Source of the DNA: Gammaproteobacteria bacterium
GTDB lineage: Bacteria > Pseudomonadota > Gammaproteobacteria > GCA-2400775
DNA length: 64,000 bases
Direction: 5' to 3'
Assembly: GCA_013151045.1 (NCBI GenBank)
Contig: JAADIY010000017.1
Coordinates: 10,458-74,457 of the forward strand
Part shown: one piece after another, positions 2,143-58,158 of the stretch
Position numbering within the stretch: position 1 is the stretch's first letter
Layout of the letters: each line of letters opens with the position of its first letter
The notes under the pieces: generated by a model
Database searches by the model: none
Seen by the model: only the letters and a program-made list of their open reading frames with translations
What the model was told of the DNA's origin: nothing
Made by a program: the position numbers and the translations under genes

Positions 2143-4563
2143 ATGCAGCAAACTGATAACATTCGTTGGTTCGATGACCTAGGAATTGATGATGTCACCA
2201 TAGTCGGTGGCAAGAATGCATCTTTAGGTGAAATGTATTGTCAACTTAGCCCATTAGGCGTTCATGTACCCAATGGTTTTGCGACGACAGCAAAAGCATA
2301 TCGCAGCAACACTCAAAAAATTAATGAAAAAATTACCTCGCTATTGGCAAAAATCAAGCCTAACGACGTTAACAGCCTATCAAAATATGCCAAAAAAATT
2401 AGAAGTCTCGTTTACGAGTCCTGTCTTGATGATGCATTAAAAACTGAAATTTTACAGGCTTATCAGCAACTCAAAACGCAATACGGAAACGATATCAGCG
2501 TTGCCGTAAGAAGCTCCGCCACTGCTGAAGACTTGCCTACCGCAAGCTTTGCTGGCCAACACGATAGTTATCTGAATATTATTGGTGAAGACGCACTTAT
2601 CGACGCCTACCGCCATTGCTTTGCATCCCTCTTTAACGACCGCGCTATCACTTATCGTGACCATAATAATTTTGACCATATGATGGTCGCAATGTCGGTG
2701 GGCGTAATGAAAATGGTGCGCTCCGATATTGCCAGTAGCGGCGTTATGTTTAGTCTTGATACCGACACCGGTTTTCAAGATGTCGTGTTTATTACCTCAA
2801 CCTATGGACTTGGCGAAAACATAGTACAGGGCAATGTTGACCCAGATGAATTTTATGTACACAAACCTACTTTTAAACAAGGATATCGCAAGGTGCTTTA
2901 TCGGCGGCTAGGTGACAAGCAATCTACAATGATTTATGCCGAAACCAGCCATAAAGAAACCATTCAAGATATTGAGACAACAGCGGCGCTCCGTCAACAA
3001 TTTAGTATTTGTGATGCCGATGTGCTGACACTGGCTGACTATGCGATAAAAACAGAACAACATTATAGTGACAAGAAAGGCAAACCTTGCCCTATGGACA
3101 TGGAATGGGCCAAAGACGGCATTGATGGCAAACTCTATCTGATTCAAGCGCGCCCAGAAACGATCATATCGCAACAAAATGCCTTCCATATTACCGAATA
3201 CACACTTAAGGAATCGACTACCCCTCTATCATCTGGTCGCGCAGTCGGAGATAAAATTGTCCACGGCCGAGCAAGAAAAATTAATACAAAAGCGGACTTA
3301 GCACAATTCCAAACAGGTGAAATATTAGTCACTGACACCACCAGCCCAGATTGGGGGCCAGTAATGAATTCGGCTTCAGCGATTATTACCAATCGCGGCG
3401 GCCGCACCTGCCATGCGGCGATTGTTGCTCGCGAGCTGGGTATACCTGCTGTGGTGGGCACTGGTGATGCAACACAACGTATAGCAGATGGCGCCGAAAT
3501 CACGGTATCTTGCGCGCAAGGCAGTACCGCCTATGTCTACCCTGGCAGTCTTGCCTTCACTACTAATCGTATTAATATAAAAAAGATAGCACAGCTAAAA
3601 ACTCAGATTATGCTTAATATCGGCGACCCTGAACATGCATTATCTTATAGCCATTTACCCTGTGATGGTGTTGGCCTAGCACGCATTGAGTTTATTATCA
3701 GTAATACGATTAGAGCGCACCCGATGGCATTGCTCTACCCAGAAAAAATCCGCAGCGCTAAAGCTCGCCAACACATCACCGAGCTAACACAAGGCTATAC
3801 TAGCGGCACTGACTATTTTATAGAAAAACTTTCAGAAGGCATTGCGATGATCGCCGCTGCCTTCTATCCAAAACCCGTGATTGTGCGAACGTCAGACTTT
3901 AAGACTAACGAATACGCCAGCCTTATCGGTGGAGATAGCTTTGAGTTTATCGAAGATAACCCTATGATCGGTTTTCGCGGCGCCGCACGTTATAGCCACC
4001 CAGCTTATGCCAAAGCGTTTGGGCTTGAATGCAAAGCGATAAAACGCGTTCGCAATGAAATGGGGTTTGATAATGTCAAAGTAATGATTCCATTTTGTCG
4101 ACGCGTCAAAGAAGGGGAAGAGGTACTGCAATGCATGGCGACACATGGCCTTAAACAACATGAAAATGGGCTTGAGGTCTATGTGATGTGTGAAATACCC
4201 AATAATGTCATTCTCATTGACCAGTTCGCCCAATTATTTGACGGTTTATCAATCGGTTCTAATGACCTCACACAATTAACACTTGGTGTTGATCGTGACT
4301 CTGAAATCGTCGCGTTTGAATTTGACGAACATGATCCAGGAGTCTTAGAAATGATGCGTTTAGTCATAGCCGGCGCACATCGCAATAAGCGCCCAATAGG
4401 TATTTGTGGACAAGCCCCATCTGACTACCCAGATATTGCTGAATACCTAGTGAGTCTCAATATTGATTCAATCAGTTTAAACCCAGACTCTCTGTTTAAA
4501 ACCCGAGAAAACATTGCCGCAATAGAAGAGAAGTTACAAACAGTAAAGATCCAAGAAACATAA
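2143..4563 (+). CDS. ppsA: Phosphoenolpyruvate synthase (pyruvate,water dikinase)
   Basis: VGGKNASLGEM, AVRSSATAEDLP.ASFAGQ, phospho-His GGRTCHAAIVARELG, SIGSNDLTQL. Start probably ATG 2143 rather than 2083. Confidence 0.97.
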   Translation: MQQTDNIRWFDDLGIDDVTIVGGKNASLGEMYCQLSPLGVHVPNGFATTAKAYRSNTQKINEKITSLLAKIKPNDVNSLSKYAKKIRSLVYESCLDDALKTEILQAYQQLKTQYGNDISVAVRSSATAEDLPTASFAGQHDSYLNIIGEDALIDAYRHCFASLFNDRAITYRDHNNFDHMMVAMSVGVMKMVRSDIASSGVMFSLDTDTGFQDVVFITSTYGLGENIVQGNVDPDEFYVHKPTFKQGYRKVLYRRLGDKQSTMIYAETSHKETIQDIETTAALRQQFSICDADVLTLADYAIKTEQHYSDKKGKPCPMDMEWAKDGIDGKLYLIQARPETIISQQNAFHITEYTLKESTTPLSSGRAVGDKIVHGRARKINTKADLAQFQTGEILVTDTTSPDWGPVMNSASAIITNRGGRTCHAAIVARELGIPAVVGTGDATQRIADGAEITVSCAQGSTAYVYPGSLAFTTNRINIKKIAQLKTQIMLNIGDPEHALSYSHLPCDGVGLARIEFIISNTIRAHPMALLYPEKIRSAKARQHITELTQGYTSGTDYFIEKLSEGIAMIAAAFYPKPVIVRTSDFKTNEYASLIGGDSFEFIEDNPMIGFRGAARYSHPAYAKAFGLECKAIKRVRNEMGFDNVKVMIPFCRRVKEGEEVLQCMATHGLKQHENGLEVYVMCEIPNNVILIDQFAQLFDGLSIGSNDLTQLTLGVDRDSEIVAFEFDEHDPGVLEMMRLVIAGAHRNKRPIGICGQAPSDYPDIAEYLVSLNIDSISLNPDSLFKTRENIAAIEEKLQTVKIQET

Positions 4564-7371: not shown

Positions 7372-7614
7372 ATGACACTTGAAATCATACGTGATGTACT
7401 GGCCTGGTCTGCGGTCATTAATTATTCTATTTTACTCTATTGGTTTGTAATACTGACTTATGCTCATGATTGGGTTTATCAGTTTCATAGTCGTTGGTTC
7501 GATTTATCAACCAACACCTTTGATGCCATTCATTACTCAGCCATTGCTTTTTATAAATTAGCGATTTTCTTATTCAATCTTGTGCCTTATCTTGCATTGC
7601 TAATCGTCTTATAG
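7372..7614 (+). CDS. Small membrane protein (DUF6868-like)
   Basis: W..IN..ILL.WF......HDW.Y..H..WF.L....FDAIHY....YK....FNLVPY.AL pattern; AGGAG RBS. Confidence 0.7.
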   Translation: MTLEIIRDVLAWSAVINYSILLYWFVILTYAHDWVYQFHSRWFDLSTNTFDAIHYSAIAFYKLAIFLFNLVPYLALLIVL

Positions 7615-7941
7615 CTCTGGACACGATGAGTTTACATTTTTTGAAAAATAGCGAGGAATGATTTTATGTAATTCCATCATAATTAATACAACTAAGGCCA
7701 ATACCAACCACTGAGCCCACAGTTGCAGTGATGCTGACTGTATATTCAACACATCGCTCAGCCAAGAAATATACATTGCAGAAAAGTGCACTAGTTGTGC
7801 GACCACAGTACCTAGCAATAAAAGCCGATTACTGAGTAGGTCATGACAAAATACAGAACGTGTTTCGGATGAAAAACAGCAAACCAACCACCAAATCGCT
7901 ATACTGTACTGCTGACAAAGCAATCTTAGCGCTCTTGACAA
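7609..7941 (-). pseudogene. C-terminal remnant of a cation-transporting P-type ATPase
   Basis: SETRSVF...LSNRLLLLGTVVAQLVH..AMY..WLSDVL.I.......W...L.LA..VL..MELHK resembles the last two helices of Cation_ATPase_C. No catalytic domains upstream. Confidence 0.6.
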
Positions 7942-7985: not shown

Positions 7986-8381
7986 ATGAAAACCTTTCGC
8001 TACCTCTTATTAACATTGGCTATAGTCTTTAGCAGTTTTATCGGCTGGGGTTGGTGGATTGGCCAGCAAACAGAGCTCTATCAAGTTGAGCTCGCACCGG
8101 AAATTGAAGCAACTTACGGCTTTAAGATTAGTACACCGCAAGTACGGGTCCATGACAGACGTCGACAAGTACTGGCAATACACCCTGAAAAAAATGGTTT
8201 GCTCTACCAGGCCGGGTTTCGCGACAATGACATTTTATTGTCACACCAAATCACTGCACTTTATCAAGCACTGTACAACCAACAAGACCAAACGCTGTCA
8301 TTCAACGTCATCGATGGCGGTGACGGCCCGCCACTTAACGAACGCGAGCTACGCACTATTACGTTAAGCCCACACTACTAA
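7986..8381 (+). CDS. Membrane-anchored hypothetical protein, possible PDZ-like domain
   Basis: N-terminal TM helix; GLLYQAGFRDNDILL resembles the PDZ AGL..GD.I motif. Confidence 0.55.
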   Translation: MKTFRYLLLTLAIVFSSFIGWGWWIGQQTELYQVELAPEIEATYGFKISTPQVRVHDRRRQVLAIHPEKNGLLYQAGFRDNDILLSHQITALYQALYNQQDQTLSFNVIDGGDGPPLNERELRTITLSPHY

Positions 8382-8416: not shown

Positions 8417-8893
8417 TCATTTTTTCAGTTTTCCCCAACGGTCTATCTGTTCATAAGTCAGTGCACCACTATGAGCAAGGCGCGTAGTGGCATCGAGATA
8501 AAAATAAGCGCGCGGCAATTCTCCATACCATTGCTTATCTATTTGATAACGCAATCGTGGCGAGTGACTATTTGCAAATAACCAGTTATCAAGGTCAGTG
8601 ATAGCAAATCTATGCAATACAGCCCCAACCTCTGCAAGCTGTTCTGGTCCGTCCGTTGAGATCAGTACGACATCCAAGTGTATTTGCGTTGTATGCAAAC
8701 GTGAAAGCAGCTCAAGCTCTTTCATGCAAGGCTCACAGTCAATTGACCAGATCACCAGGATAAACGGTCGGTTTTCGCGTTGGGCTAGAATATCAGCTAG
8801 GCTGCTTTCTTCAAATAACGTGATGTTATTTGCCAATGCCGAACTTATCGACAAATAAACGATCACAAAAATAACAGAGAACTTCTCAATCAT
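8417..8893 (-). CDS. TlpA-like thioredoxin-fold protein
   Basis: Signal peptide, ILVIWSIDCEPCMKEL (CxxC), W.GELPR.YF. Confidence 0.85.
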   Translation of the reverse strand: MIEKFSVIFVIVYLSISSALANNITLFEESSLADILAQRENRPFILVIWSIDCEPCMKELELLSRLHTTQIHLDVVLISTDGPEQLAEVGAVLHRFAITDLDNWLFANSHSPRLRYQIDKQWYGELPRAYFYLDATTRLAHSGALTYEQIDRWGKLKK

Positions 8894-8914: not shown

Positions 8915-10258
8915 TTAATCACTTGAGCCTAGCCTCAGCAAGCGATAGCCCTCATCATCGGTACGCCATGACAGATAGGCTTTATCACCATCACTAACCA
9001 AAAATAGCTGATCTGATTCATTTTTTGTCTGCGCCACAGCCTGGTAGGCAGACCAACTTTCACCGCCATCAAATGACGTAATCAGGCGCACTTCAGTGGC
9101 ATCTCCAACAAAGCGTTTCCAGGCAAGATAAACCTTATCACCCAGCACCAACACTCGTGGATGACTCGCAGCGGCAGAACTATCGATAGAAATATCATGC
9201 TCCAATAGATCTTGCTGACTGTCAAAACGACCGTAGACCAAACCAGGGCGCTTACCTCCACCATTAAACCAGGCAACGTGCATGCGATCGTGTTGATCAA
9301 GAGAAATGTCTGGACCATGATGTGGGCAAGCATCAATCTGCCACTCATCATAGCTCACACGAACGGGAGCTTTTGCTAGTGAAGAGCCTGACAAAATCGC
9401 CATCGCGTTGTCGCGGGCAAAACCCGGATAAATATTCCGCCATAGCGCATGCACACTGCCATCGTTTGCACTTGCTATGCGCATACGACAACATTCACAA
9501 CTATTATCAACCACTTTTATATTAGGCGTAAACGTAGCACCACTGTCACTTGAAACGGAATAGTAAACTGAGCCACCCGGATATTCTTTACCTTCAGCAT
9601 CCGCAGCAGCTTTATCACGCTTATCAATCCAAGCAAGATATAAGCGACCTTGTTTATCGACAGCCATATTGTCAAAACGATGGCTAGTCAACGCACCCTC
9701 ATCAATGGGCGTCATTGATGCTTCAAATGTAGCACCCTGATCTAAGGAACGACTAAAACGTACTTCACCGCTATATTTCGCTTTACGTTTACGCGTCCAT
9801 GACACATAAACTTCGCCTTCATGACCAAAAGCTAATTTCGGTCTATTTTCCTTATCCGCGTAAATATGTTCTGGCACTCGATTTACTGCTACTGGCACAG
9901 AAAAATCTATACCTAAATTTTCTGAACGTGCGACATAAACGTGGCCATGACTAACAAAGCTTAACCATAGATCACCCTCAGCAGAAAAAATAGGCATAGG
10001 TGCCTTAGCACAGTCGACCGATGGCACGGCAAAGGGTGAAGCGCAACGCAATGCTAATGAATGTGCAACCTTGCTTGCACCGTGCTGATGTATTTTATCA
10101 CTTGGCTTATCTTGAGATTGAACTGCTAGCACAATACCTGACCAACAGACGCTAATAACTGCGACAAGCAAAATTATTTTCAAGAACAAACATTTTGTCG
10201 CAAACATCTTCATAACTACTGCCCCCAACCTTAATAGACAATTCACCAAAGATAGCAT
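8915..10258 (-). CDS. Exported BNR/Asp-box (sialidase-fold) beta-propeller protein
   Basis: Asp-boxes SENLG, SLDQGATF, SSDSGATF, SFDGGESW; conserved CECCR and CPHHGP; signal-like N-terminus. The start may lie downstream of 10258. Confidence 0.85.
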   Translation of the reverse strand: MLSLVNCLLRLGAVVMKMFATKCLFLKIILLVAVISVCWSGIVLAVQSQDKPSDKIHQHGASKVAHSLALRCASPFAVPSVDCAKAPMPIFSAEGDLWLSFVSHGHVYVARSENLGIDFSVPVAVNRVPEHIYADKENRPKLAFGHEGEVYVSWTRKRKAKYSGEVRFSRSLDQGATFEASMTPIDEGALTSHRFDNMAVDKQGRLYLAWIDKRDKAAADAEGKEYPGGSVYYSVSSDSGATFTPNIKVVDNSCECCRMRIASANDGSVHALWRNIYPGFARDNAMAILSGSSLAKAPVRVSYDEWQIDACPHHGPDISLDQHDRMHVAWFNGGGKRPGLVYGRFDSQQDLLEHDISIDSSAAASHPRVLVLGDKVYLAWKRFVGDATEVRLITSFDGGESWSAYQAVAQTKNESDQLFLVSDGDKAYLSWRTDDEGYRLLRLGSSD

Positions 10259-10286
10259 CCTAGTCTAAAGACACTGACAAAACCCT

Positions 10287-10307
10287 AGGGTGCGACAATA
10301 TGCCACA
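10287..10307 (+). promoter_or_regulatory. Inverted-repeat operator (RegA/RegR/RoxR-like), copy 1
   Basis: AGGGTGCGACAATATGCCACA upstream of TATAAT (10331-10336) and the TBDR; 15/17 core identity to 58138-58154. Confidence 0.6.
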
Positions 10308-10379
10308 TTCCCGGAGCATCGATTGCTCACTATAATCACGCCACAAAATTTCTGATAATAATTCCACTAGGGTACTTAC

Positions 10380-12461
10380 ATGCGTCATTTTTCAATTACC
10401 GTGGCGGTTGCTGCTGTGCTGTCATCAACCACTGCATATGCTGAAAAAAAGATCGAGCTCTCACCTATCTTGGTTGAAGGCCAACAAACTGAACAAAGCT
10501 TAACGACACCATCGATAGAGCTATCTCAAGAAAAACTTAATGCAGTGCCCGGCGGTACAACCGTTATCGACCCTGAGCAATTTCGTAATGGTGCAGTTCG
10601 GGATATCGCAGACTCATTGAGATTAACGCCTGGTGTTTATGCGCAAAGTCGCTTTGGCTCAGATGAAACACGGCTTTCTATCCGTGGCTCCGGTATCTCA
10701 TTAACATTCAACACACGAGGCATTCGCTTACTTCGCGATGGCCTACCCCTTAATGAAGCTGATGGTAACTTTCGCCCACAATTACTTGAGCCACTAGTCG
10801 CCCAACAAATCGAAGTTTATCGTGGTGCTAATGCCTTAGAATTTGGCGCTGCGACCTTAGGTGGAGCAATCAATATTATCTCACCCACCGCACGCACAGT
10901 CGATGGCTTCACTCAGCGTCTTGAACTTGGCAGCGATGCTTATCGCCGTTTTCAAATTACCAACGGCAAAGTGATTGATGACAAATGGGATATCTATGGC
11001 TCACTAACCGGTATCGCACAAGATGGTTTTCGAGATAATGCTGAACAAGACACCATACGTTTTTACGGTAACGTAGGCTACCAATGGGGCTCAGGCAGTG
11101 AGACACGTATTCATTTAAACATACAAGATAACAACCTTGAATTGCCAGGCTCTTTAACATTAGAACAATTAGAAGAGGACGCCTCACAAGCAAATGCTGG
11201 ATCAGAACTTGTTAACTCGCAACGGGACTTTGATTTATATCGAATCTCAGCGCAGCATAGTGTGCCACTTGCAAACGGCGGTAAAGCAGATTTTGGTTTG
11301 AGCTTTCAACATTTAGACTTTTTTCACCCGCTACGCTTCGCTTTATTGCTATCAGACCAAAACGATACGACGTTTAGCACTCGCGTTGAGCAGCCGATTG
11401 GTGAGCGCCATAACTTAATCTACGGCGCACTAGCAAGCTGGGGCGAATCTAATGATCAGCGTTCTAGCAATTTTGGCCTTGCAGCAGGCGTACTGTTTAA
11501 CCAGGGCTCTATTACTGAACGCGGTGACTCACGATCATTTGGCTTGGAATTATTTATTCAAGATACTATCGCACTGAATAACACGGTCGATGCAATTGTC
11601 GGCACTCAAGCCATATTCGCGCGCCGCGAATCGAGCGAACTTGACCTACGTAGTAACGAATTCGGCGAGCGCGAAGAAAACTATTCTGGCTTAAGCCCAC
11701 GCATCGGCTTAATTTGGGCGCCTACCGAAAACAATCAATATTTTACAAATTTGAGTCGCAGCTTTGAGGCACCCACATCTAGCGCCTTCGCGATAGATCT
11801 CGACAATACAACCGAAGGTATTCTTGACGAACAAATTGCGATGACTTTTGAAATTGGTACACGTGGCAATATACGAAATCTTAATTACGAATTAGCCGTA
11901 TATTACTCAGATATTGAGAATGAAATTTTAACCGTAGAAAACCCACTACAAGACGGTGACACTATTACTTCAAATGCCGACGACACTGTGCATAAAGGTG
12001 TTGAATTTGGCATATCTGGTGCGCTCACTCCGTGGCTAAACGTCATTGCTGCTTACACTTACAATAACTTTAAATTTAACAATGACACCTTGTTTAGCAA
12101 TAACGAAATTCCAAGCATTCCACGTAATTTCGCTAACGCTGAATTCGAATTTCATAACCAATCTGGCTTTAGTATTGGGCCGACCATCCAATATGCCGAC
12201 AGCCACTACGTCGACTTTGCCAATACAGTACGCAACAATGCCTATGTCATCTACGGCTTAAAAGCTTCTTACCAAGCCAATAATTGGTTCAAAGTATTCT
12301 TAGAAGCACGCAACCTAGAAGATGAAACGTTTGCATCAAATACTGGCACGGCTTCCAATCTAAATGGTATATCGGATGCCACCAATGCGACTACTGGCGG
12401 CTCAGTGTTTAACCCTGGCATTGATCGCAGCTTTTTCGCCGGCGTGGAAATCAAACTCTAA
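10380..12461 (+). CDS. TonB-dependent receptor
   Basis: Signal peptide, plug motifs LSIRGSG / GIRLLRDGLPLNEADG / IEVYRGANALEFG, C-terminal FFAGVEIKL beta-signal. Confidence 0.95.
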   Translation: MRHFSITVAVAAVLSSTTAYAEKKIELSPILVEGQQTEQSLTTPSIELSQEKLNAVPGGTTVIDPEQFRNGAVRDIADSLRLTPGVYAQSRFGSDETRLSIRGSGISLTFNTRGIRLLRDGLPLNEADGNFRPQLLEPLVAQQIEVYRGANALEFGAATLGGAINIISPTARTVDGFTQRLELGSDAYRRFQITNGKVIDDKWDIYGSLTGIAQDGFRDNAEQDTIRFYGNVGYQWGSGSETRIHLNIQDNNLELPGSLTLEQLEEDASQANAGSELVNSQRDFDLYRISAQHSVPLANGGKADFGLSFQHLDFFHPLRFALLLSDQNDTTFSTRVEQPIGERHNLIYGALASWGESNDQRSSNFGLAAGVLFNQGSITERGDSRSFGLELFIQDTIALNNTVDAIVGTQAIFARRESSELDLRSNEFGEREENYSGLSPRIGLIWAPTENNQYFTNLSRSFEAPTSSAFAIDLDNTTEGILDEQIAMTFEIGTRGNIRNLNYELAVYYSDIENEILTVENPLQDGDTITSNADDTVHKGVEFGISGALTPWLNVIAAYTYNNFKFNNDTLFSNNEIPSIPRNFANAEFEFHNQSGFSIGPTIQYADSHYVDFANTVRNNAYVIYGLKASYQANNWFKVFLEARNLEDETFASNTGTASNLNGISDATNATTGGSVFNPGIDRSFFAGVEIKL

Positions 12462-12600
12462 AAATAAAAACAGGCAATAAAAGGCATTTATACGACCAAG
12501 GATGGTCACCGGCTTAGGCACAACAGTCGCGAAATTAAACGAACTCTCGTACACTTTAGCTATCCATATCGCTTCTGATCGTACTTTCTGGGGTAGTTTA

Positions 12601-13761
12601 ATGATTTCGTCTTATTTATCACCGTATCGGGCACGCCGATTAACGGTGACCTTTGGCCTGTTTTGCCTCATTTCACTCGTCGCTTGCACTGAAAACAAGC
12701 AAAACAATACTGCGCAACAATCTAATCCTCAACCCCTATCAAACCCAGCTAGCGAGCCTGCTACTGAGCCAGAACCACAATCACTCGGCGATAATCGTGA
12801 AACGCATTTAGCGAACATTAAACAGCTAACGTTCGGCGGTCAAAACGCTGAAGCTTACTTTTCGTATGACGATAGCAAGCTAGTCTTTCAAGCGACTACA
12901 CGCGATGCAGCAAAACAATGTGACCAAATCTATTCTATGAATAGTGATGGTAGCGACAAGAAATTACTCAGTACGGGTGATGGCGTTACCACCTGTTCAT
13001 TTTTCTACCCCGATGATAAATACATTCTTTACGCATCAACTCATGAGGGTAAAAAAGATTGTCCACCGCCAGCCAATTTTAGCGAGGGCTATACTTGGCG
13101 CCTGGAGAAAGAATATGACATCTATAAAAGCGATCTCGACGGTAACATCGTTGCCAAATTAACCAATGAGCCAGGTTATGATGCAGAAGCCGTAATATCA
13201 CCCACTGGCGATAAAATCGTTTTTACCAGTGTTCGTAGCGGTGACCTCGAACTCTGGACAATGGATCTGGATGGTAGCAACTTAAATCAAATCACCGATA
13301 CACCTGGTTATGATGGTGGTGCCTTTTTCTCACCTAACGGCAAAAAAATTGTCTGGCGTGCGAGTCGCTTTGAGAATGACGCTGAAGGACTCGCTGAATA
13401 TCAACGGCTATTAAATAAAGGTCTTATTAGACCAAGCTCGCTTGATCTCTATATCATGGATGTCGATGGCTCAAACAAACAGCAGATTACTGACTTTGGC
13501 AAAGCAAGCTTTGGCCCCTACTTCCATCCATCAGGTGAAAAAATTATTTTTTCATCAAATCTCGATGACCCAAAAGGACAAGAGTTTGATTTATACCTAG
13601 TAGATATCAATACTAAAGAACTTGAACGTGTAACCTATACTGGAGACTTTGACGGCTTCCCTATGTTTTCTCGTGACGGCAAGAAACTAGTATGGGGTTC
13701 AAACCGCCATAATGAAAAACCACGCGAAACCAATGTTTTTATTGCCGACTGGGTCGAGTAA
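12601..13761 (+). CDS. TolB-like PD40 beta-propeller lipoprotein
   Basis: Lipobox LISLVAC, Pro/Glu-rich linker, repeats NAEAYFS, YDAEAVISPTG, YDGGAFFSPNG, FDGFPMFSRDG. Start probably ATG 12601. Confidence 0.85.
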   Translation: MISSYLSPYRARRLTVTFGLFCLISLVACTENKQNNTAQQSNPQPLSNPASEPATEPEPQSLGDNRETHLANIKQLTFGGQNAEAYFSYDDSKLVFQATTRDAAKQCDQIYSMNSDGSDKKLLSTGDGVTTCSFFYPDDKYILYASTHEGKKDCPPPANFSEGYTWRLEKEYDIYKSDLDGNIVAKLTNEPGYDAEAVISPTGDKIVFTSVRSGDLELWTMDLDGSNLNQITDTPGYDGGAFFSPNGKKIVWRASRFENDAEGLAEYQRLLNKGLIRPSSLDLYIMDVDGSNKQQITDFGKASFGPYFHPSGEKIIFSSNLDDPKGQEFDLYLVDINTKELERVTYTGDFDGFPMFSRDGKKLVWGSNRHNEKPRETNVFIADWVE

Positions 13762-13773
13762 ACGGAAATTATT

Positions 13774-14787
13774 ATGATAGAAGCACTCATCGAATACGGT
13801 TTATTTTTTGCCAAAACTGCAACGCTATTAATCGCATTAGTCGTTGCATTAACGATTATTTTTTCACTAGGTCGGCGCGACAAAACAGCCGAGCGCCTGA
13901 CTGTACGTAGTATCAATCAAAAATACGACACCATGCGCCAGCTACTAGAACATGAGGTGTTAAATAAAAAAGCGTTAAAGAAAACGAACAAGGAACATAA
14001 AAAAGAAACCAAAGCCAAAAAGAAAGAAAAGTCAGAGGCTGATAGAAAGCGTGTATTCGTTCTCAACTTTAAAGGCGACATACGCGCTAGCGCCGTAGCC
14101 TCTTTACGCGAAGAAATTACTGCACTACTGACTATTGCCAACAAAGACGACGAAGTCTTAGTTTGCCTTGAAAATCCAGGTGGTACTGTTCACGAACATG
14201 GCCTCGCTGCTTCACAATTGTTACGCATCAGACAACGAGAAATCCCCTTAATCGTCGCCGTCGATAAAGTTGCTGCCAGTGGTGGTTACTTAATGGCTTC
14301 AACCGCTAACAAAATAATTGCTGCCCCTTTTGCCATTATTGGTTCAATCGGTGTCATTGCTCAAATTCCTAACTTTCGCCGAGTGCTAGAAAAACATGGC
14401 GTCGATTTTGAACAAATCACTGCTGGAAAATATAAACGCACCATCACTATGTTTGGCAAAAATACCGACGAAGATCGCGCCAAATTAAAACAAGATTTAG
14501 AAGAAGTGCATGACTTATTTAAAGCCAGCGTTACCGAACACCGAGAAGAGCTCGACATTGAACAAGTTGCCACAGGTGATCACTGGTATGGCCAACAAGC
14601 ATTAGAGTTAAAGCTCGTCGACGAGCTCATGACTAGCGATGATTATTTGCTAGAAAAAAGTAAAGACTCAGATTTATTTGAAATCGAATATAAGCAAAAG
14701 AAAAAAATTGGTAAAAAACTAGGTGCTGCGGCACGCGGTGCTTGGGATGAGTTCAGCAGCAATATTTCTTCAAGATGGGAAAAATAG
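13774..14787 (+). CDS. sohB: S49 protease SohB
   Basis: FKGDIRAS.V.SLREEI, LENPGG.VH.HGLAASQL.R, VDKVAASGGY.MA, TAGKYKRT. Confidence 0.95.
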   Translation: MIEALIEYGLFFAKTATLLIALVVALTIIFSLGRRDKTAERLTVRSINQKYDTMRQLLEHEVLNKKALKKTNKEHKKETKAKKKEKSEADRKRVFVLNFKGDIRASAVASLREEITALLTIANKDDEVLVCLENPGGTVHEHGLAASQLLRIRQREIPLIVAVDKVAASGGYLMASTANKIIAAPFAIIGSIGVIAQIPNFRRVLEKHGVDFEQITAGKYKRTITMFGKNTDEDRAKLKQDLEEVHDLFKASVTEHREELDIEQVATGDHWYGQQALELKLVDELMTSDDYLLEKSKDSDLFEIEYKQKKKIGKKLGAAARGAWDEFSSNISSRWEK

Positions 14788-14960: not shown

Positions 14961-17186
<2,226 letters not shown>

Positions 17187-21865: not shown

Positions 21866-21977
21866 GTTACGGCATAGAATACCACCGTAGCCCGACAAAT
21901 CACACGAACCTTATGATGACACTGGCGTCCTACTGCTAGGCTAGCTAAAATAGCCATACTTTTGATCGCTATTGGTA

Positions 21978-22640
21978 ATGATGATGGAACTTGCTCAAGC
22001 TCGATTTAATATGATTGAACAGCAAATCCGCCCCTGGGATGTGCTCGACCAGCGTGTCTTAGATTTATTGGACATGCTGCATCGTGAAAATTTTGTCAGT
22101 GACAGTAACAAATCGTTAGCCTACGCTGACGTTAGCATTACGCTAGACCATGGCGAAGTCATGATGCCACCTAAGGTCGAAGCACGCTTAGTCCAGGCAT
22201 TAAACATCAAAGATAATGAGCAGGTACTCGAAATTGGTACTGGCAGTGGCTATGTCACAGCAATGCTGGCAAAAATGGCTACACACGTGACTAGCGTTGA
22301 TATCCACGAAGATTTCCTGGCTCAAGCGAAATCACGGCTCGAGGCATATGACATTAGTAATGTCACCCTCGAACATGGCGATGCTTCAAACGGTTGGAAA
22401 ACCGATGAGGCCACCTACGACGTAATTGCCATAACAGGCTCGTTACCACAATACATAGATGCCTTTCAGAAAAGCCTTAATGTTGGCGGTCGTTTATTTG
22501 TTATTGTTGGCCAAGCACCCATTATGGAAGCGCTGCTCGTCACCCGCGTCACCATGGGCGAATGGGTAAAACAAAGCTTATTTGAAACAGACCTAGCGCC
22601 ACTGCAAAACGCTTCAACACCTTCCCGTTTTGTATTTTAA
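21978..22640 (+). CDS. pcm: Protein-L-isoaspartate O-methyltransferase family (Pcm2 type)
   Basis: ARFNMIEQQIRPWDV, VLEIGTGSGY, YDVIAITGS, LFET. Start lies among ATGs at 21978-21984. Confidence 0.9.
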   Translation: MMMELAQARFNMIEQQIRPWDVLDQRVLDLLDMLHRENFVSDSNKSLAYADVSITLDHGEVMMPPKVEARLVQALNIKDNEQVLEIGTGSGYVTAMLAKMATHVTSVDIHEDFLAQAKSRLEAYDISNVTLEHGDASNGWKTDEATYDVIAITGSLPQYIDAFQKSLNVGGRLFVIVGQAPIMEALLVTRVTMGEWVKQSLFETDLAPLQNASTPSRFVF

Positions 22641-22674
22641 GCGGCTGCAGCCGCTTAATAAGGTCATAACCAAC

Positions 22675-24003
22675 ATGAAGAAAGTGCCCGTTCATATACT
22701 GTGTTTGCTCGGTGCTATCGGCCTCACATTCAATACACAGGCTGACGATTTAGAAAAAGTTCTTAGCCTAGCCTTAGAAAATGACCCACAGGTTAATCAA
22801 ACAAAAGCGGCCTACGCTGCTGCATTAGAGTCCCGACCGCAAGCGCGTGCGAATTTTTTGCCAAATATTAGCTTTAGTGTTAACACGACCGATAATGCAC
22901 AAGACCGCCAGTTTGGTGCCGGCAGTATATTTAGCGGTAACGAAGACTTTAACTCTCATGGCTATACTTTGAGTCTGACTCAACCGGTCTATAACCGTGA
23001 TTCCATTGTGCAGCGACGCCAAACCGACGCCATTGTCGGTGAAGCCAAAGCTAATTTATCAAGTAGCGAGCAAAACCTCGTTGTCCGTGTCGCCGAACGT
23101 TACTTTGACATACTCGCCGCAGAAGACAATGTCACCTTTGCTAAAACAGAAAAAAAAGCGATCGCTCGTCAACTTGAACAAACTAATGAGCGTTTTGAAG
23201 TTGGCCTGATCCCAATTACCGATGTCAATGAAGCACAAGCGAGCTACGACCTCTCCATTGCCGATGAAATTGATGCAGACAATACTCTGCTAAATGCGCG
23301 CGAAGGCTTACGTGAAATAACGAGTAACGATCATGAGTTTTTAGCCCCTCTAATAGCCAACACACCGCTAATTTCTCCTGACCCAGAAAACATCGAACGC
23401 TGGGTTGAAGTTGCATTAAACAACAATCTATCCGTAATAGCCGCAGAGTTTGCCAGCACAAACTTACGCCATGCTATCGATCGGGCAAAGTCTGGGCTTT
23501 ACCCCACTATCGATATTGTAGCAAGCCGATCAAACAACGTCTCTGCTGGTGGCAGCCTTGGTGGCAGCGAAATCGACAGCACTGCCTTAGGTTTAGAACT
23601 AAATGTACCCCTTTATGCTGGCGGCCGTATTTTCTCGCAAGCTCGCCAAGCACAAGCACGCTTAGAAGAATCAAATCAGCTTCTGGAACAGCAACGACGC
23701 AGCGTAGTACGCCAAGTTAGAGAATCTTATCTCGGCGTGCTCGCTAGCATTAGTCGCGTAGAAGCACTCGTTCAAGCAGAAAAATCCAGCCAAAGTGCCT
23801 TAGAAGCCAATGAAGTGGGGTTAGAAGTTGGTACTCGCACAACCGTTGATGTATTGAATGCCCGACGTGTTTTGTTTGGTGCAAAACGGGACTTAGCAAG
23901 AGCGCGTTATGACTATATTTTAAATACTCTGCGCCTAAAGCAAGCTGCTGGCACATTGAGCAATAATGACATTAGAGAAGTCAATCGTTGGCTTGCACGT
24001 TAA
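22675..24003 (+). CDS. tolC: TolC family outer membrane channel
   Basis: LTQPVY, RFEVGL..ITDV.EAQA.YD, L.VPLYAGG, EVGTRTTVDVLNA, ARYDYILN.LRLKQAAGTL. Start probably ATG 22675. Confidence 0.93.
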   Translation: MKKVPVHILCLLGAIGLTFNTQADDLEKVLSLALENDPQVNQTKAAYAAALESRPQARANFLPNISFSVNTTDNAQDRQFGAGSIFSGNEDFNSHGYTLSLTQPVYNRDSIVQRRQTDAIVGEAKANLSSSEQNLVVRVAERYFDILAAEDNVTFAKTEKKAIARQLEQTNERFEVGLIPITDVNEAQASYDLSIADEIDADNTLLNAREGLREITSNDHEFLAPLIANTPLISPDPENIERWVEVALNNNLSVIAAEFASTNLRHAIDRAKSGLYPTIDIVASRSNNVSAGGSLGGSEIDSTALGLELNVPLYAGGRIFSQARQAQARLEESNQLLEQQRRSVVRQVRESYLGVLASISRVEALVQAEKSSQSALEANEVGLEVGTRTTVDVLNARRVLFGAKRDLARARYDYILNTLRLKQAAGTLSNNDIREVNRWLAR

Positions 24004-41113: not shown

Positions 41114-41539
41114 ATGTCATCTTGCCAAACCATGCAAGCTCCTGATTCAAATGCGAAATTAAAACTTAAAATGGTCGCCGACGACGACCCAAGCAATAAT
41201 AAACCAGTTGTTGTTTACATCACCTGCGGGCCGCAACAGGCTGAAGATCTGGCGCGTATCCTGGTGACAAAAAAAGCCGCCGCCTGTGTGAACATTGTGG
41301 GTAATGTACGTTCTATATACCGCTGGCAAAATAAAATCGAAGAAGATAATGAAAGCATGCTGATCATTAAAACGACCACCTCGTCACTAGAGCTAATGAG
41401 CAAACTAGTTAAACAACATCATGAATACGATCTCCCAGAGATTATCGCAACACCCATCGTCGCTGGCTCGCAGGATTATCTCAGCTGGATCAATAGCGCC
41501 ACCACAATCAATACTGGCCCCAATGGAGCCGATAAATAG
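41114..41539 (+). CDS. cutA: Divalent-cation tolerance protein CutA
   Basis: AACVNI, RSIYRWQ.KIE...E, HEYDLPEII. The true start may be near 41171. Confidence 0.93.
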   Translation: MSSCQTMQAPDSNAKLKLKMVADDDPSNNKPVVVYITCGPQQAEDLARILVTKKAAACVNIVGNVRSIYRWQNKIEEDNESMLIIKTTTSSLELMSKLVKQHHEYDLPEIIATPIVAGSQDYLSWINSATTINTGPNGADK

Positions 41540-41542
41540 ACC

Positions 41543-43441
41543 ATGAAACCCATACACAGATTCTACAGCCTCGTCTTCGCGCTATTTTGCTGTATAGCGC
41601 CGCTGCAAATTGCCAGCGCAGCCGGTAATGCCGTAGAGGGTGATCTTGCCGATCGATTGCGCGCACTCAGCGACGAACTCGGTTTAAATAAAGCCGAACA
41701 AACCGTGTTGTCACCCGGCGAAGCCTTTATATTTGATGCACAAGCCACCAATGGCCAAACCATTGAAGCCAGCTGGATCATCGCAGACAACATATATATG
41801 TACCGCGACAAGTTTCGTTTCGAAATTATCGACGGCGAAGCCAATAACATCCAACTTGGTGAGCCACAATTTAAACCAGGCAAAAAGAAATACGACGAAA
41901 GCTTTGGTGATACCGAAGTCTATTTCCACGAAGCCGTCATTACACTGCCCATCATTCGTGATGCAGGCCCGGCGCAAACCATCCAGCTCCAAGCCTATTA
42001 TCAGGGCTGTGTCGAAGACAGTTTTTGCTACCCACCGCAAAAGAAAATTATAGATATCGATTTACCGAAACTGACCCAAGCCTCATTAACCACATCGAGT
42101 AGTGATACAGCCAGCAATAGCGAAGAAATATTTGTCTCAGAACAAGATCAGTTTGCTGCCACCATCGCCGGCGGTAGCTTGTGGCTCATCATAGTTTCCT
42201 TCTTTGGTATCGGCTTATTACTCGCCTTTACACCCTGCGTCTTCCCCATGATCCCGATCTTATCAGGGATCATTATTGGCCAAGGCAAAGAACTCACAAC
42301 ACGTCATGCCTTTATGCTCTCACTCGTCTACGTCATAGCCATGGCATTAACGTATACCGTTATCGGCGTGTTAGCAGGCTTGTTTGGCGCCAACCTACAA
42401 GCGGCGTTTCAAGACCCCTGGATTATCTCAGGTTTCGTGCTGATCTTTATCGCACTCTCATTATCCATGTTCGGCTTTTACGAACTGCAAATGCCTAATG
42501 CACTACAAAGCAAAATAACCCAATTTAGCAACTCACAAAAAGGCGGCAGCATGATTAGTGTTGCCATCATGGGTGTCTTATCAGCACTGATCGTTGGGCC
42601 TTGCGTAGCTGCACCTTTAGCCGGCGCACTCATCTACATCAGCAATAGTGGTGATGCCGTATTAGGTGGGCTCGCCTTGTTTGCCATGAGTCTAGGCATG
42701 GGTGCGCCGTTATTAGCGATAGGCGCCTCAGCAGGCAAACTCCTCCCCAAAGCAGGCGCATGGATGGACGGCATTAAAGCTGCATTCGGCATCATGTTAT
42801 TAGCCGTTGCCGTGTGGATGCTAGAACGCATTGTCCCAAATATGATAGCTATGTTGCTGTGGTCGTTACTATTTATATTCAGCGCAGTATATCTTGGCGC
42901 ACTAGATCGATTAGATAATGCCATGGGCTGGCAGCGTTTTCGCAAAGGCTGTGGCATCGCCTTACTCATTTACGGTTGCTTCGTCATGCTCGGCGCAGTC
43001 AGCGGCGGCCATGATGTCACCAGACCCTTGCATGGAGTGAGCTTTCTAGTAGGCTCAGCACAATCAAATCATGAGCTAGAATTTAAAACCATCAAAAGCG
43101 TCGATGACCTACAACATGAAGTCATCAGCGCCAGTCAAAACGGCCAAGCCGTCATGCTCGATTTCTACGCCGACTGGTGCGTCGCCTGCAAAGAAATGGA
43201 AAAATACACCTTCTCAGACCCCGCGGTGCAACAAACGTTGAGTAATGTAGTCTTACTACAAGCTGACGTCACCGCTAACGATAATATCGATAAAGCGCTC
43301 ATGAAACACTTTAATATCCCCGGCCCACCATCAATAATGTTTTATGATGCCCAAGGTAAAGAACGCAAACCTTATCGAATCGTTGGCTTTATAAAAGCCG
43401 CCCCCTTCAAACAACATGTGGATAAAGCGCTAGCACTCTAA
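41543..43441 (+). CDS. dsbD: Thiol:disulfide interchange protein DsbD
   Basis: YQGC....FCYPP, AFTPCVFPMIPILS, VGPCVAAPL, DFYADWCVACKEME. Confidence 0.96.
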   Translation: MKPIHRFYSLVFALFCCIAPLQIASAAGNAVEGDLADRLRALSDELGLNKAEQTVLSPGEAFIFDAQATNGQTIEASWIIADNIYMYRDKFRFEIIDGEANNIQLGEPQFKPGKKKYDESFGDTEVYFHEAVITLPIIRDAGPAQTIQLQAYYQGCVEDSFCYPPQKKIIDIDLPKLTQASLTTSSSDTASNSEEIFVSEQDQFAATIAGGSLWLIIVSFFGIGLLLAFTPCVFPMIPILSGIIIGQGKELTTRHAFMLSLVYVIAMALTYTVIGVLAGLFGANLQAAFQDPWIISGFVLIFIALSLSMFGFYELQMPNALQSKITQFSNSQKGGSMISVAIMGVLSALIVGPCVAAPLAGALIYISNSGDAVLGGLALFAMSLGMGAPLLAIGASAGKLLPKAGAWMDGIKAAFGIMLLAVAVWMLERIVPNMIAMLLWSLLFIFSAVYLGALDRLDNAMGWQRFRKGCGIALLIYGCFVMLGAVSGGHDVTRPLHGVSFLVGSAQSNHELEFKTIKSVDDLQHEVISASQNGQAVMLDFYADWCVACKEMEKYTFSDPAVQQTLSNVVLLQADVTANDNIDKALMKHFNIPGPPSIMFYDAQGKERKPYRIVGFIKAAPFKQHVDKALAL

Positions 43442-43458
43442 ACAGCGCAATCAAATTT

Positions 43459-44100
43459 ATGAGCCAAGAAAATGGGCACGGCCGTGCCATTAATATCGCT
43501 ATCGTTACACTATTTGTAATTGGTGGCCTAGGCGTTGCCTTAAATCACTTTTATCAAAAATCGCGTGAAGCAAAAATTAACGCAGCCGTAAAAATTGAAA
43601 GAGCAGCAGCCAATGAAGTCGCTGCAAACTTGAGTGCTGATGAATCAACCAACGAAGCTTCTGATGCCGATATTACAACCGAACTAGTCAAACGACCCGA
43701 CTTCACCTTGCCCGATGTCGAAGGTATTAAACGCACCGTCAGCACCTGGGATGGCAAAGTCCTAGTGCTCAACTTTTGGGCATCCTGGTGCGAACCCTGT
43801 TTACGCGAAATACCCGCGTTCGTTGACCTACAAAATACCTATGGTGAACAAGGTCTACAATTCGTCGGCATCGCTGTCGAAGACCTATTGCCGGTACAAG
43901 AATTTCTCGCTGTGATTCCGATCAACTACCCAATACTCGTCCACCCCAGCAAAACTATCCCCATCGCCGAAGCCTACGGCAACGAATTCGGCATCCTGCC
44001 CTACACCGTCATCATCAATCGCGACAGCGAAATAGCCCACACACAACTAGGCGCAATGAGTCACGAAGATGCAGAAGAGATTATTAGAAACTTATTGTAA
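43459..44100 (+). CDS. TlpA family disulfide reductase
   Basis: TM anchor; RPDFTL, VLNFWASWCEPCLREIP, LPYTV.I.R. Confidence 0.9.
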   Translation: MSQENGHGRAINIAIVTLFVIGGLGVALNHFYQKSREAKINAAVKIERAAANEVAANLSADESTNEASDADITTELVKRPDFTLPDVEGIKRTVSTWDGKVLVLNFWASWCEPCLREIPAFVDLQNTYGEQGLQFVGIAVEDLLPVQEFLAVIPINYPILVHPSKTIPIAEAYGNEFGILPYTVIINRDSEIAHTQLGAMSHEDAEEIIRNLL

Positions 44101-57008: not shown

Positions 57009-58058
57009 CTAGATAGTTTTTTGCCAGCCTATATGAAAAGTGCTATCCACTTCTAATTGTGGTCCATCTAGATTTTGTTGAATAGGCTGAGAATACTCAA
57101 TTGCTAGACGATGCCCTTTAAAAAACCCACTGCGCACCAAGTAGTTAACACCGATACCCAAGTCAGTACGGCGGCCAGCACGCAAATCTGTTCGTGCTGT
57201 CGGCACGATATCAATACCATTCATTGGATTAGTCACCAATAAGTCTGGGTCGGCGCCATCAATATTATCCCACTTTGACCAATTCAAACGAGCACTCATG
57301 CTAAAACTGGAGCTAATCCGTTTCGCCACCCAAGTCGTCGCCACATACATATCACCAAGCGTATAGCCTCGTCTATTCTCGCCCAAATGAATCGTCGCCG
57401 TCGCTTGACTACCCCAAGACCAAGTATTTTTAGACTGCCCCAAATACGTAATACCAGGCATTAAGTCATAGGTGCCGGAGCCCAGGCGCATCGGATAAGG
57501 TAACAAGCTATCAGAACCCATTGGCGTGGTATCACGCGTAGAGATATCACCCGTTGGCAAGCTTACAGCCAAATTGGCATGCCAGCGATGACCAGCGCTA
57601 TCATGAAATTTATACATTCCACCAACACGAGTATCGCCAATACCTTCTGCTTCAGTGGTGAAATTGGCACCAGTGCGTGTCACATGATCCATACTTAATT
57701 TCACGTAAGGCAACATACCCATTAAGGTTAGCTTGTCATTCACTGCGTACATCGCGCCAAACATATGCATTTCCATTGTCATTCTTAGTGGCGTGACAAT
57801 AAAACCATCAGTCCCTGCACGCACACCATCCGGACCATTTAATACTTCTTCTGCGCTCAGCCTATTATTACCATCGCGGTTACCGCTCATATTCATATTC
57901 ATATAACGATAAGACAACATCAGCTCGCCGGTATTATGGGTATGATCACCCATCACTCCTATCGGTGCATGACTATCTGGGACAGACAAATCCCAATCGT
58001 GAGCGTAAGTTATTGGCGACGCGCTTAAAGTCGCCATCAGCAAAAATTTCAGTTTCAT
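57009..58058 (-). CDS. Met/His-rich outer-membrane beta-barrel ('transporter') protein
   Basis: Signal peptide, HAPIGVMGDHTH, M.SYRYM.M.M, GIGD, LSLPTG, YPMRLGSGT.D, terminal WQKTI. Confidence 0.75.
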   Translation of the reverse strand: MKLKFLLMATLSASPITYAHDWDLSVPDSHAPIGVMGDHTHNTGELMLSYRYMNMNMSGNRDGNNRLSAEEVLNGPDGVRAGTDGFIVTPLRMTMEMHMFGAMYAVNDKLTLMGMLPYVKLSMDHVTRTGANFTTEAEGIGDTRVGGMYKFHDSAGHRWHANLAVSLPTGDISTRDTTPMGSDSLLPYPMRLGSGTYDLMPGITYLGQSKNTWSWGSQATATIHLGENRRGYTLGDMYVATTWVAKRISSSFSMSARLNWSKWDNIDGADPDLLVTNPMNGIDIVPTARTDLRAGRRTDLGIGVNYLVRSGFFKGHRLAIEYSQPIQQNLDGPQLEVDSTFHIGWQKTI

Positions 58059-58137
58059 AACACTCGCCTCAAAAAGCTGAATTCATAACAAATCTATGGC
58101 TTGTATTTTAGAAGTAAAAATTTTGCTGGGTTGAAAC

Positions 58138-58158
58138 TGCGACAATTTGCCGCACCCT
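58138..58158 (-). promoter_or_regulatory. Inverted-repeat operator (RegA/RegR/RoxR-like), copy 2
   Basis: TGCGACAATTTGCCGCA contains an exact GCGNC-N5-GNCGC, about 80 nt upstream of the OM protein start. Confidence 0.65.

Follow-up and report, generated by a model that had tools for sequence, protein, structure and literature searches.

A RegA-type palindrome upstream of two outer-membrane uptake genes in a gammaproteobacterium: predicted operators with a possible role in copper supply

A stretch of 64,000 nucleotides from contig JAADIY010000017.1 of a gammaproteobacterium ("the window"; all positions refer to it) contains two 17-bp palindromes, one upstream of a gene for a TonB-dependent receptor (TBDR) and the other upstream of "gene 2," which encodes a Met/His-rich outer-membrane channel. 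By its sequence, the element is of the known RegA/PrrA/RegR/RoxR box kind, and both sites are predicted with good confidence to be operators of a RegA-family response regulator. This assignment, already made in the original prediction, was supported by a core identical to that of RegA sites found by chromatin immunoprecipitation sequencing (ChIP-seq), by RegB/RegA-type pairs adjacent to the box in other genomes, and by downstream genes dominated by copper functions. The location of the box at a fixed distance in front of uptake and copper-chaperone genes suggests a coupling of copper supply to how the respiratory chain is functioning.

The two palindromes and their conservation

Site 1 has the sequence TGCGACAATATGCCACA; site 2 reads TGCGACAATTTGCCGCA on the plus strand and TGCGGCAAATTGTCGCA in the direction of its gene. 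Both are intergenic (Table 1), site 1 being located in a divergent intergenic region of 120 to 165 bp. The box consensus is the palindrome TGCGRCA-N3-TGYCGCA with a GG(G) flank. The original prediction had described the same element in front of two outer-membrane uptake genes, and its sequences, coordinates, and AGGG flanks were all correct. The identity of 15/17 positions given there holds on the plus strand because the element is a palindrome; with both sites in gene orientation, the AGGG flank being distal, 12/17 positions are identical. The gaps between the end of the site and the start codon were likewise as described, 72 nt (ATG at 10380) and 79 nt (ATG at 58058), and the site centers are indeed 32 and 36 nt away from TATAAT (10331 to 10336) and TAAAAT (58110 to 58105), respectively. 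The pattern GCGNC-N5-GNCGC, cited as the established box, fits site 2 exactly but not site 1, which carries GCCAC in the right half, one position off.

In a position-weight scan, the sites obtained scores of 29.6 and 21.1 and were the only strong matches in 64 kb. The next match had a score of 10.6 and was located within an open reading frame (ORF), and all others were below 1. A score of 21 was reached by 0/200 shuffled sequences. A degenerate pattern with up to one mismatch yielded 6 strand-matches compared to 0.33 expected, and 0/100 shuffles attained 6. A motif frequent at random positions, as feared in the original prediction, was not seen: two outlier sites were far above chance, and both were intergenic.

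Conservation upstream of orthologs, another point on which the prediction depended, was found for both genes (61 to 86% protein identity). The box was retained before the TBDR orthologs with 86, 81, and 61% identity as AGGGTGCGACAATATGCCGCATTCCCG, AGGGTGCGACAATTTGTCGCATTCTC, and AGGGTGCGACAGTTTGCCGCATTCCCG, with TATAAT 23 nt past the box in each and the remaining region diverging. In front of the gene 2 orthologs (72 to 82% identity), the box was retained as TGCGRCAWWTTGTCGCA between diverging flanks, followed by a conserved CTAAAAT 28 nt past the box. The AGGG flank was present in 4/4 TBDR orthologs, and at least GG stood directly before TGCG in 8/8 orthologous sites; at operator 2, the flank was CAGG, GGGG, and CGGG in three orthologs.

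Table 1. Features of the two loci in the window; L numbers designate loci in other genomes
Feature	Position	Strand	Remarks
Operator 1, 17-bp imperfect palindrome	10291 to 10307		Predicted RegA/PrrA-type box between two divergent promoters; kept in L008, L001, and L005
AGGG flank of operator 1	10287 to 10290	+	Side away from the TBDR gene
Weak hexamer TTCCCG at the −35 position	10308 to 10313	+	Abuts palindrome 1; TTCCC/TTCTC kept in orthologs
−10 hexamer TATAAT, TBDR operon	10331 to 10336	+	23 nt past the palindrome; ATAAT invariant in 4 orthologs
Candidate −10 TAGACT, divergent BNR-like operon	10262 to 10267	−	23 nt from the palindrome; putative
TBDR, 693 aa	10380 to 12461	+	Plug and TonB_dep_Rec barrel; first gene after operator 1
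PD40/TolB-like beta-propeller (12502 to 13761) and S49 peptidase (13774 to 14787)	12502 to 14787	+	Synteny
BNR-like beta-propeller	8915 to 10213	−	Divergent from TBDR; start revised to M16
Thioredoxin-fold (TlpA-like) protein	8417 to 8893	−	CEPC motif; weak AhpC-TSA match; downstream of BNR-like gene
Operator 2, near-perfect palindrome	58138 to 58154		Kept in L009, L012, and L015
AGGG flank of operator 2 (CCCT on plus strand)	58155 to 58158	−	Gene-distal side
−10 hexamer TAAAAT, gene 2	58105 to 58110	−	27 nt past the palindrome; C(C/A)CTAAAAT conserved in orthologs
Met/His-rich outer-membrane channel, 349 aa	57009 to 58058	−	PF13557, COG4313-type barrel

The box in other genomes

An exact scan for GGGTGCGRCADWWTGYCGCA in about 185,000 species genomes, one genome per species, yielded at least 119 loci. 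The pattern forced a GGG flank, and the counts are those of a sample. The loci were found mainly in Beta- and Gammaproteobacteria, among iron oxidizers, nitrifiers, and methanotrophs; about 50 chance matches were estimated, spread over all phyla. Gallionellaceae, Sideroxydans, Nitrosomonadales, Methyloglobulus, unclassified Gammaproteobacteria, Herbaspirillum, Acidithiobacillus, and Moraxellaceae dominated the loci listed.

The first ORF after each of the matches listed was sorted by Pfam. Plug/TBDR proteins came first with 16 loci, followed by the PCuAC copper chaperone with 12 and MbnP with 4. NosL, cytochrome b561, sensor kinase, PF13557 (by Pfam), and BNR were each represented by 2 loci, and cytochrome bd subunit I, DUF1775/YcnI, and SCO1/SenC by 1 each. 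When the listed loci were instead grouped by sequence clusters, the gene 2 channels were the largest family directly after the motif, with 12 loci plus the window. PCuAC also reached 12, one TBDR group 9, and MbnP-like lipoproteins 5, and the window TBDR clustered with 5 motif-preceded TBDRs of other genomes. These counts and clusters place both window genes in the commonest target families of the box. A regulon connecting the TBDR/BNR/TlpA locus with the Met/His-rich barrel, as originally proposed, agrees with this recurrence of both families after the box elsewhere, but the box is widespread across Proteobacteria and the attribute "small" does not apply.

Assignment to the RegA family

The core GCGACA-N3-TGTCGC is shared with 15-mers of the RegA ChIP-seq of Rhodobacter capsulatus, for example, GCGACCGTTCGTCGC (ccoN), GTGACAATTTGTCCC (cydA), and CGGACAAAATGTCGC (PMC5359404, Table 2). 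By eye, site 2 fits the degenerate RegA motif in the form quoted in PMC5506826. Among the 119 loci listed, about 30 possess a RegB/RegA-type pair within 8 kb (tblastn), and in at least 18 of these, no more than roughly 60 nt separate the box from the start of the kinase gene. At a chance of about 0.4% per locus, the co-occurrence corresponds to P of about 1e-44. In a Gallionella locus (L099), the box, divergent from a PCuAC gene, is located directly upstream of the genes for a 435-aa histidine kinase with six transmembrane segments and a 184-aa response regulator composed of a receiver domain (REC) and a Fis-type helix-turn-helix (HTH) domain, HTH_8. In a gammaproteobacterial locus (L034), the kinase/regulator pair is divergent from a gene 2 homolog, and the box stands between them.

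The kinases of L099, L034, and L049 contain the six-transmembrane domain, a GGxxNPF motif (GGSTNPF or GGQYNPF), an H-box, and a Cys 40 to 45 residues past the His. These features correspond to the quinone site and the redox Cys of RegB, in line with the description of R. capsulatus RegB in PMC5506826. The DNA-binding domain of the inspected regulator aligned with the PrrA effector domain 1umq and with 3rqi, the recognition helix NMHRRTLQR being identical, and JGI labels homologs of the regulator RegA. Group 1 RegA proteins carry an invariant Cys just before the HTH, and their genes are cotranscribed with senC (PMC9147068); in contrast, this Cys is missing from the regulators of L099 and L049, and the pairs are neighbors of PCuAC or other genes and not of senC. 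As judged from these features, the pairs beside the box are closer to the RoxR type than to group 1 RegA.

A RegB/RegA pair, the search for which had been suggested along with the original prediction, was found in other genomes, but none is encoded in the 64-kb window (tblastn). A protein search for RegA of this lineage returned mostly Halomonas-like and L034-like proteins, none of them tied to the lineage. Both results speak against the assignment. RegA binding in this organism would follow from the site, its conservation, and its association with RegB/RegA. In the papers examined, neither a RoxR box nor a target of RoxSR among outer-membrane uptake genes was defined, and searching the literature with motif strings matched only primers.

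In a RegB/RegA locus from marine metagenomes (L135), a candidate that originates from samples other than those of the window, a variant box TGTGACAAATTGTCGCC at positions 3578 to 3596 is located 8 nt upstream of a GATAAT before regB. Its overlap with the promoter suggests negative autoregulation.

Copper or another substrate

The box precedes genes for PCuAC, MbnP, NosL, Sco, YcnI, and cytochrome bd elsewhere, and because of this set of genes, it is fairly likely that the regulon serves copper acquisition and the supply of cuproenzymes. The control by redox state and the service to terminal oxidases would follow from the regulator family. Connections of this family to copper or to uptake are documented: senC forms a transcription unit with regA/regB, and copper is bound by RegA (PMC9147068), copCAB is under the control of RegR (PMC4064962), and deletion of regA in Methylomonas lowers the levels of a TBDR and a tonB operon (PMC13274454).

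The channel encoded by gene 2 matched PF13557 with E = 1.5e-8, above the gathering score. Its AlphaFold model had a predicted local distance difference test (pLDDT) value of 86, and its best fold match was the COG4313 channel 4rl8 with a TM-score, normalized to the target, of 0.79 and E = 2e-13. Met contributes 6.3% of the residues, and 11 Met and 3 His are invariant in 35 homologs with 50 to 80% identity. The sequence contains the alternating Met runs YRYMNMNMSG and MTMEMHMFGAMY and an N-terminal HAPIGVMGDHTH segment. The conserved Met and His residues suggest a ladder in or at the barrel.

The evidence from the TBDR is of the opposite kind. This protein contains 0 Cys and 0.3% Met and has no copper signature, its best database matches were receptors of the siderophore/PqqU type, although below the cut-off, and copper as its substrate would follow from the co-regulated genes only. 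OprC was absent from its sequence matches in the PDB. The barrel of OprC carries a copper site composed of Cys, Met, and His, which the window TBDR cannot hold because it has no Cys. Moreover, ChIP in Methylomonas did not detect RegA at the TBDR and tonB promoters (PMC13274454). These points tell against the proposed RegA control of copper uptake.

Alternatively, the sites may be RegA sites in front of genes for the uptake of iron, of a metal other than copper, or of an organic cofactor. In addition to the composition of the TBDR, its nearest families, a siderophore-receptor subfamily and PqqU/YncD, point in this direction, as do the JGI annotation of its homologs as iron-complex receptors and the interpretation of the RegA-dependent TBDR, tonB, and feo genes of Methylomonas as iron uptake (PMC13274454). 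On the other hand, the best matches to the Fur box in the two intergenic regions had 11/19 and 9/19 consensus positions, no better than shuffles, so that Fur control was rejected for both. The families co-regulated in other genomes (PCuAC, MbnP, NosL, Sco, and YcnI) are specific to copper. The invariant 11 Met and 3 His of gene 2 and the invariant Cys motifs of the BNR-like protein beside the CEPC thioredoxin also do not agree with this explanation, which is consequently considered rather unlikely.

If copper is the substrate, the RegB/RegA (RoxSR) system of Beta- and Gammaproteobacteria could, as a tentative extension, be an indirect sensor of copper limitation. When active heme-copper oxidases are in short supply, the quinone pool would become reduced, and RegA, at a sharply defined box centered at about −43.5, would switch on an outer-membrane set for copper acquisition. 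This set would comprise COG4313-type Met/His channels, TBDRs, MbnP, PCuAC, and the BNR-like Cys proteins together with their thioredoxin. If this is true, iron oxidizers, nitrifiers, and methanotrophs would have a copper regulon in common, among whose members would be families of transporters without an assigned function. It could also be one input to the copper-dependent switches in organisms relying on copper enzymes.

Promoter geometry and proposed mechanism

The promoter regions of 136 to 137 listed motif sites were aligned. The six bases directly following the palindrome (positions 17 to 22 of the alignment) were T/C, T/C, C, C, C, and A, and a TAnAnT signal appeared at one position only. 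A TAnnnT was located 22 or 23 nt past the box in 61/136 listed sites, compared to 1 to 2 per position elsewhere, and in the upstream direction, it was present at 22 to 23 nt in 26/136. Individual promoters have TATAAT, TACAAT, or TAAAAT at this distance. Site 1, with the layout TTCCCG-N17-TATAAT, agrees with the modal spacing. On the opposite strand, the −10 position 23 nt away is occupied by TAGATT in L008 and TTTACT in L001, and the box at site 1 probably serves both divergent operons.

In a consensus promoter scan, the −35 hexamers were too poor for a self-sufficient sigma-70 promoter to be called at either gene, and no RNA runs covering the locus were found. A fixed distance together with a good −10 and a poor −35 hexamer argues for activation from a center at about −43.5, and from this geometry, the operators would more probably activate than repress. 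The activator position proposed originally was borne out at site 1 but not at site 2, where the spacing is 27 nt (28 nt in three orthologs), about half a helical turn off the mode. In addition, the best palindromic site of R. capsulatus, at ccoN, is repressive (PMC5359404), so that the sign of regulation is not readable from the sequence. Both observations count against activation. The 5-bp shift in spacing is conserved in the lineage of the window only (L009, L012, and L015), and gene 2 homologs elsewhere have 22 to 23 nt.

The two palindromes would be bound by a dimeric response regulator of the RegA/PrrA/ActR/RoxR family, composed of a receiver and a Fis-type HTH domain. Its partner kinase RegB/RoxS would read the redox state of the quinone pool (PMC5506826) and, hence, respiratory electron flow. 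With the box flush with a weak −35 site, 22 to 23 nt before a good −10 site, and centered at about −43.5, the phosphorylated regulator would most likely recruit RNA polymerase, in the style of a class II activator, to promoters that are not able to fire alone. Operator 1 would drive the TBDR/PD40 propeller/S49 operon and the BNR-like/thioredoxin-like operon, and operator 2 the COG4313-type channel. When heme-copper oxidases become limiting, the chain would be reduced, RegB would activate RegA, and the uptake genes would be switched on. As a further idea, the flux through heme-copper oxidases would feed back on PrrB in Rhodobacter and on RoxS in Pseudomonas, a connection for which our literature search gave no confirmation; the search also found nothing joining RoxSR with copper starvation.

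Instead of activating, the RegA-type protein may occlude the −35 region and silence the uptake genes for as long as it stays bound. The box is adjacent to the −35 position or overlaps it, the near-perfect ccoN site of R. capsulatus is tied to repression (PMC5359404), and the spacing at site 2 is not the modal one. In many listed loci, moreover, only 0 to 30 nt lie between the box and the start of regB, in agreement with negative autoregulation at those loci. A repressor, however, needs no single distance to the −10 site, and yet this distance is 22 to 23 nt in 61/136 listed sites. Poor −35 sites with good −10 sites are typical of activator-dependent promoters, and in Burkholderia and Methylomonas, cyd/cio and a TBDR are under positive control by RoxSR/RegA. 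Repression is therefore judged to be unlikely.

It is even less probable, and indeed hardly to be expected, that a different regulator, for instance, a dedicated copper sensor, uses the box and that the RegB/RegA operons are merely among its targets. The regulon does look metal-specific instead of globally redox-related, no transcription factor gene is near either site in the window, and RegA binding is a prediction. Nevertheless, the core equals the ChIP-seq RegA motif, the neighboring regulators carry the PrrA recognition helix, and no other regulator family recurs among the listed downstream genes. A chance likeness or a structural element, such as a repeat or an apaH terminator hairpin (site 2 is 33 nt past the apaH stop codon and may form a 7-bp hairpin), can practically be dismissed: no T-run follows site 2 and no terminator was called, site 1 has no co-directional upstream gene, and the sites are statistical outliers, conserved in orthologs, with a consistent set of downstream genes elsewhere.

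Some other candidates were rejected. An apaH terminator at site 2 was discarded for lack of a T-run and of a terminator call. The CusR/CopR-type box (GACAA-N2-TTGTC) differs by 1 bp in spacing, and the regulators adjacent to the box are Fis-type instead of OmpR-type. HcpR/CooA-type Crp boxes have half-sites in the opposite orientation and an even length. A GG-N10-GC sequence at 10311 to 10324, as in a sigma-54 promoter, is located at site 1, but site 2 lacks an equivalent, and the orthologs have not retained the sequence as such.

Comparison with known systems

RegB/RegA of R. capsulatus and PrrB/PrrA of R. sphaeroides share the core, the recognition helix, and the kinase hallmarks with the pairs linked to the motif. 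A copper chaperone gene is a neighbor in both cases, senC there and PCuAC here, and cytochrome bd is a target in both. In contrast to the sharp 17-bp palindrome with one −10 distance described here, alphaproteobacterial sites are described as degenerate and variably spaced (PMC5506826), and the targets are genes for photosynthesis and carbon and nitrogen fixation instead of outer-membrane uptake. The box GNGRCRTTNNGNCGC of RegS/RegR from Bradyrhizobium japonicum, in the form quoted in PMC5506826, is matched by site 2 at 10/11 specified positions on the plus strand, by eye. Control of copCAB and the nos genes by RegR (PMC4064962) is a copper link like that of the box targets; however, the half-sites of RegR show little conservation and differ in their spacing, and no uptake regulon is described for RegR.

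RoxS/RoxR of Pseudomonas and Burkholderia has the architecture closest to that of the Beta- and Gammaproteobacterial pairs beside the box. RoxSR positively controls copper-independent bd-type oxidases, and a box match is located upstream of the gene for cytochrome bd subunit I (cydA) in Moraxella osloensis (L016, positions 2662 to 2681). If this box is functional, a copper-independent oxidase would be co-regulated with copper-uptake genes. The RegB/RegA system of Methylomonas sp. DH-1 (PMC13274454) is a gammaproteobacterial case in which a TBDR and the tonB operon are lowered when regA is deleted; its authors read this as iron uptake, found RegA by ChIP only at feo, and reported no motif.

Class II activation of the CRP/FNR type (about −41.5) resembles the box in the position of a dimer site at −35, the fixed distance to the −10 site, and the poor −35 site. 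It differs in that the protein here has a Fis-type HTH, the center is at about −43.5, and the distance at site 2 is longer by 5 bp. Outer-membrane uptake is tied to the function of heme-copper oxidases, as proposed here, also in the cases of cruR-crtA of Bordetella and OprC of Pseudomonas, which are TonB-dependent copper importers under copper-responsive control. The control of crtA is, unlike that by the box, post-transcriptional via an upstream ORF.

In the literature examined, a box this sharp and with a single promoter register appears to be undescribed, as do its spread over Beta- and Gammaproteobacterial chemolithotrophs and the concentration of its targets on outer-membrane uptake and periplasmic copper chaperones. 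A copper-homeostasis review from 2020 mentions RegA only in passing. A study on Acidithiobacillus could define no RegA motif, and none was defined outside Alphaproteobacteria (PMC5506826). The motif of this long-studied redox system was called degenerate, and the data now give a sharp 17-bp box with one promoter geometry in more than 100 genomes. They also tie RegB/RegA to bacterial copper acquisition, a poorly understood process for which few importers, and no regulator of this type, are covered in the reviews examined. A function is thereby indicated for the Met/His-rich COG4313-type channels, the BNR-like CxCC protein with its thioredoxin, and a subfamily of TBDRs, and the box may be used as a genomic marker for such genes in vent chemoautotrophs, iron oxidizers, nitrifiers, and methanotrophs.

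Neighboring genes and remainder of the window

The genes for TBDR, PD40 propeller, and S49 peptidase are probably one operon, since the same order is present in L001 to L007. On the other side of site 1, the BNR-like gene in its longest ORF would begin at 10258, before the point at which transcription is predicted to start. M16 (10213) is the likelier start because it yields a clean signal peptide and agrees with shorter orthologs. BNR-like homologs are present in 7 motif loci, and the motifs CxCC and (A/G)CP are invariant over 10 homologs from box-carrying loci. The order BNR-like gene to thioredoxin-like gene is also found in L001 to L004. The product of the second gene had been labeled "TlpA"; the CEPC motif is in accordance with this label, but the profile match is only a weak one to AhpC-TSA. 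The two proteins are a candidate Cys-based pair for periplasmic metal handling.

In relatives, a TonB_C gene follows the thioredoxin-like gene (L001, 1412 to 2062). The window does not have it there and contains in the same place a 131-aa ORF without assignment (7986 to 8381, plus strand). A 110-aa fragment (7609 to 7941, minus strand), which matches only the C terminus of cation-transporting ATPases, is possibly a gene remnant. In the close relative L002, a dabA gene for inorganic carbon uptake of the DAB type (1 to 1371) adjoins the locus, consistent with the lifestyle of a chemoautotroph.

Two further half-sites TGCGACAA, at 10160 to 10167 and 10195 to 10202, are located in an inverted orientation 27 nt apart within the part of the BNR-like gene that encodes the signal peptide; L008 does not conserve them, and they are probably due to chance. 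The same is probably true for the weak half-palindrome AGAGACAATATGTCTGA (14982 to 14998; matrix score about −0.5), which overlaps the start codon of katG (14991 to 17186).

Beyond both loci, the window contains housekeeping genes. Two ORFs at 21972 to 24003 had the right size for a two-component pair but were rejected as such, their products being PCMT and a TolC-like OEP. A cutA1/dsbD/redoxin cluster (41114 to 44100, plus strand), with functions in divalent-ion tolerance and periplasmic thiol reduction, is not preceded by a RegA-type box. The sequence of the window occurs in metagenomes from hydrothermal vents, marine samples, and biofilms.

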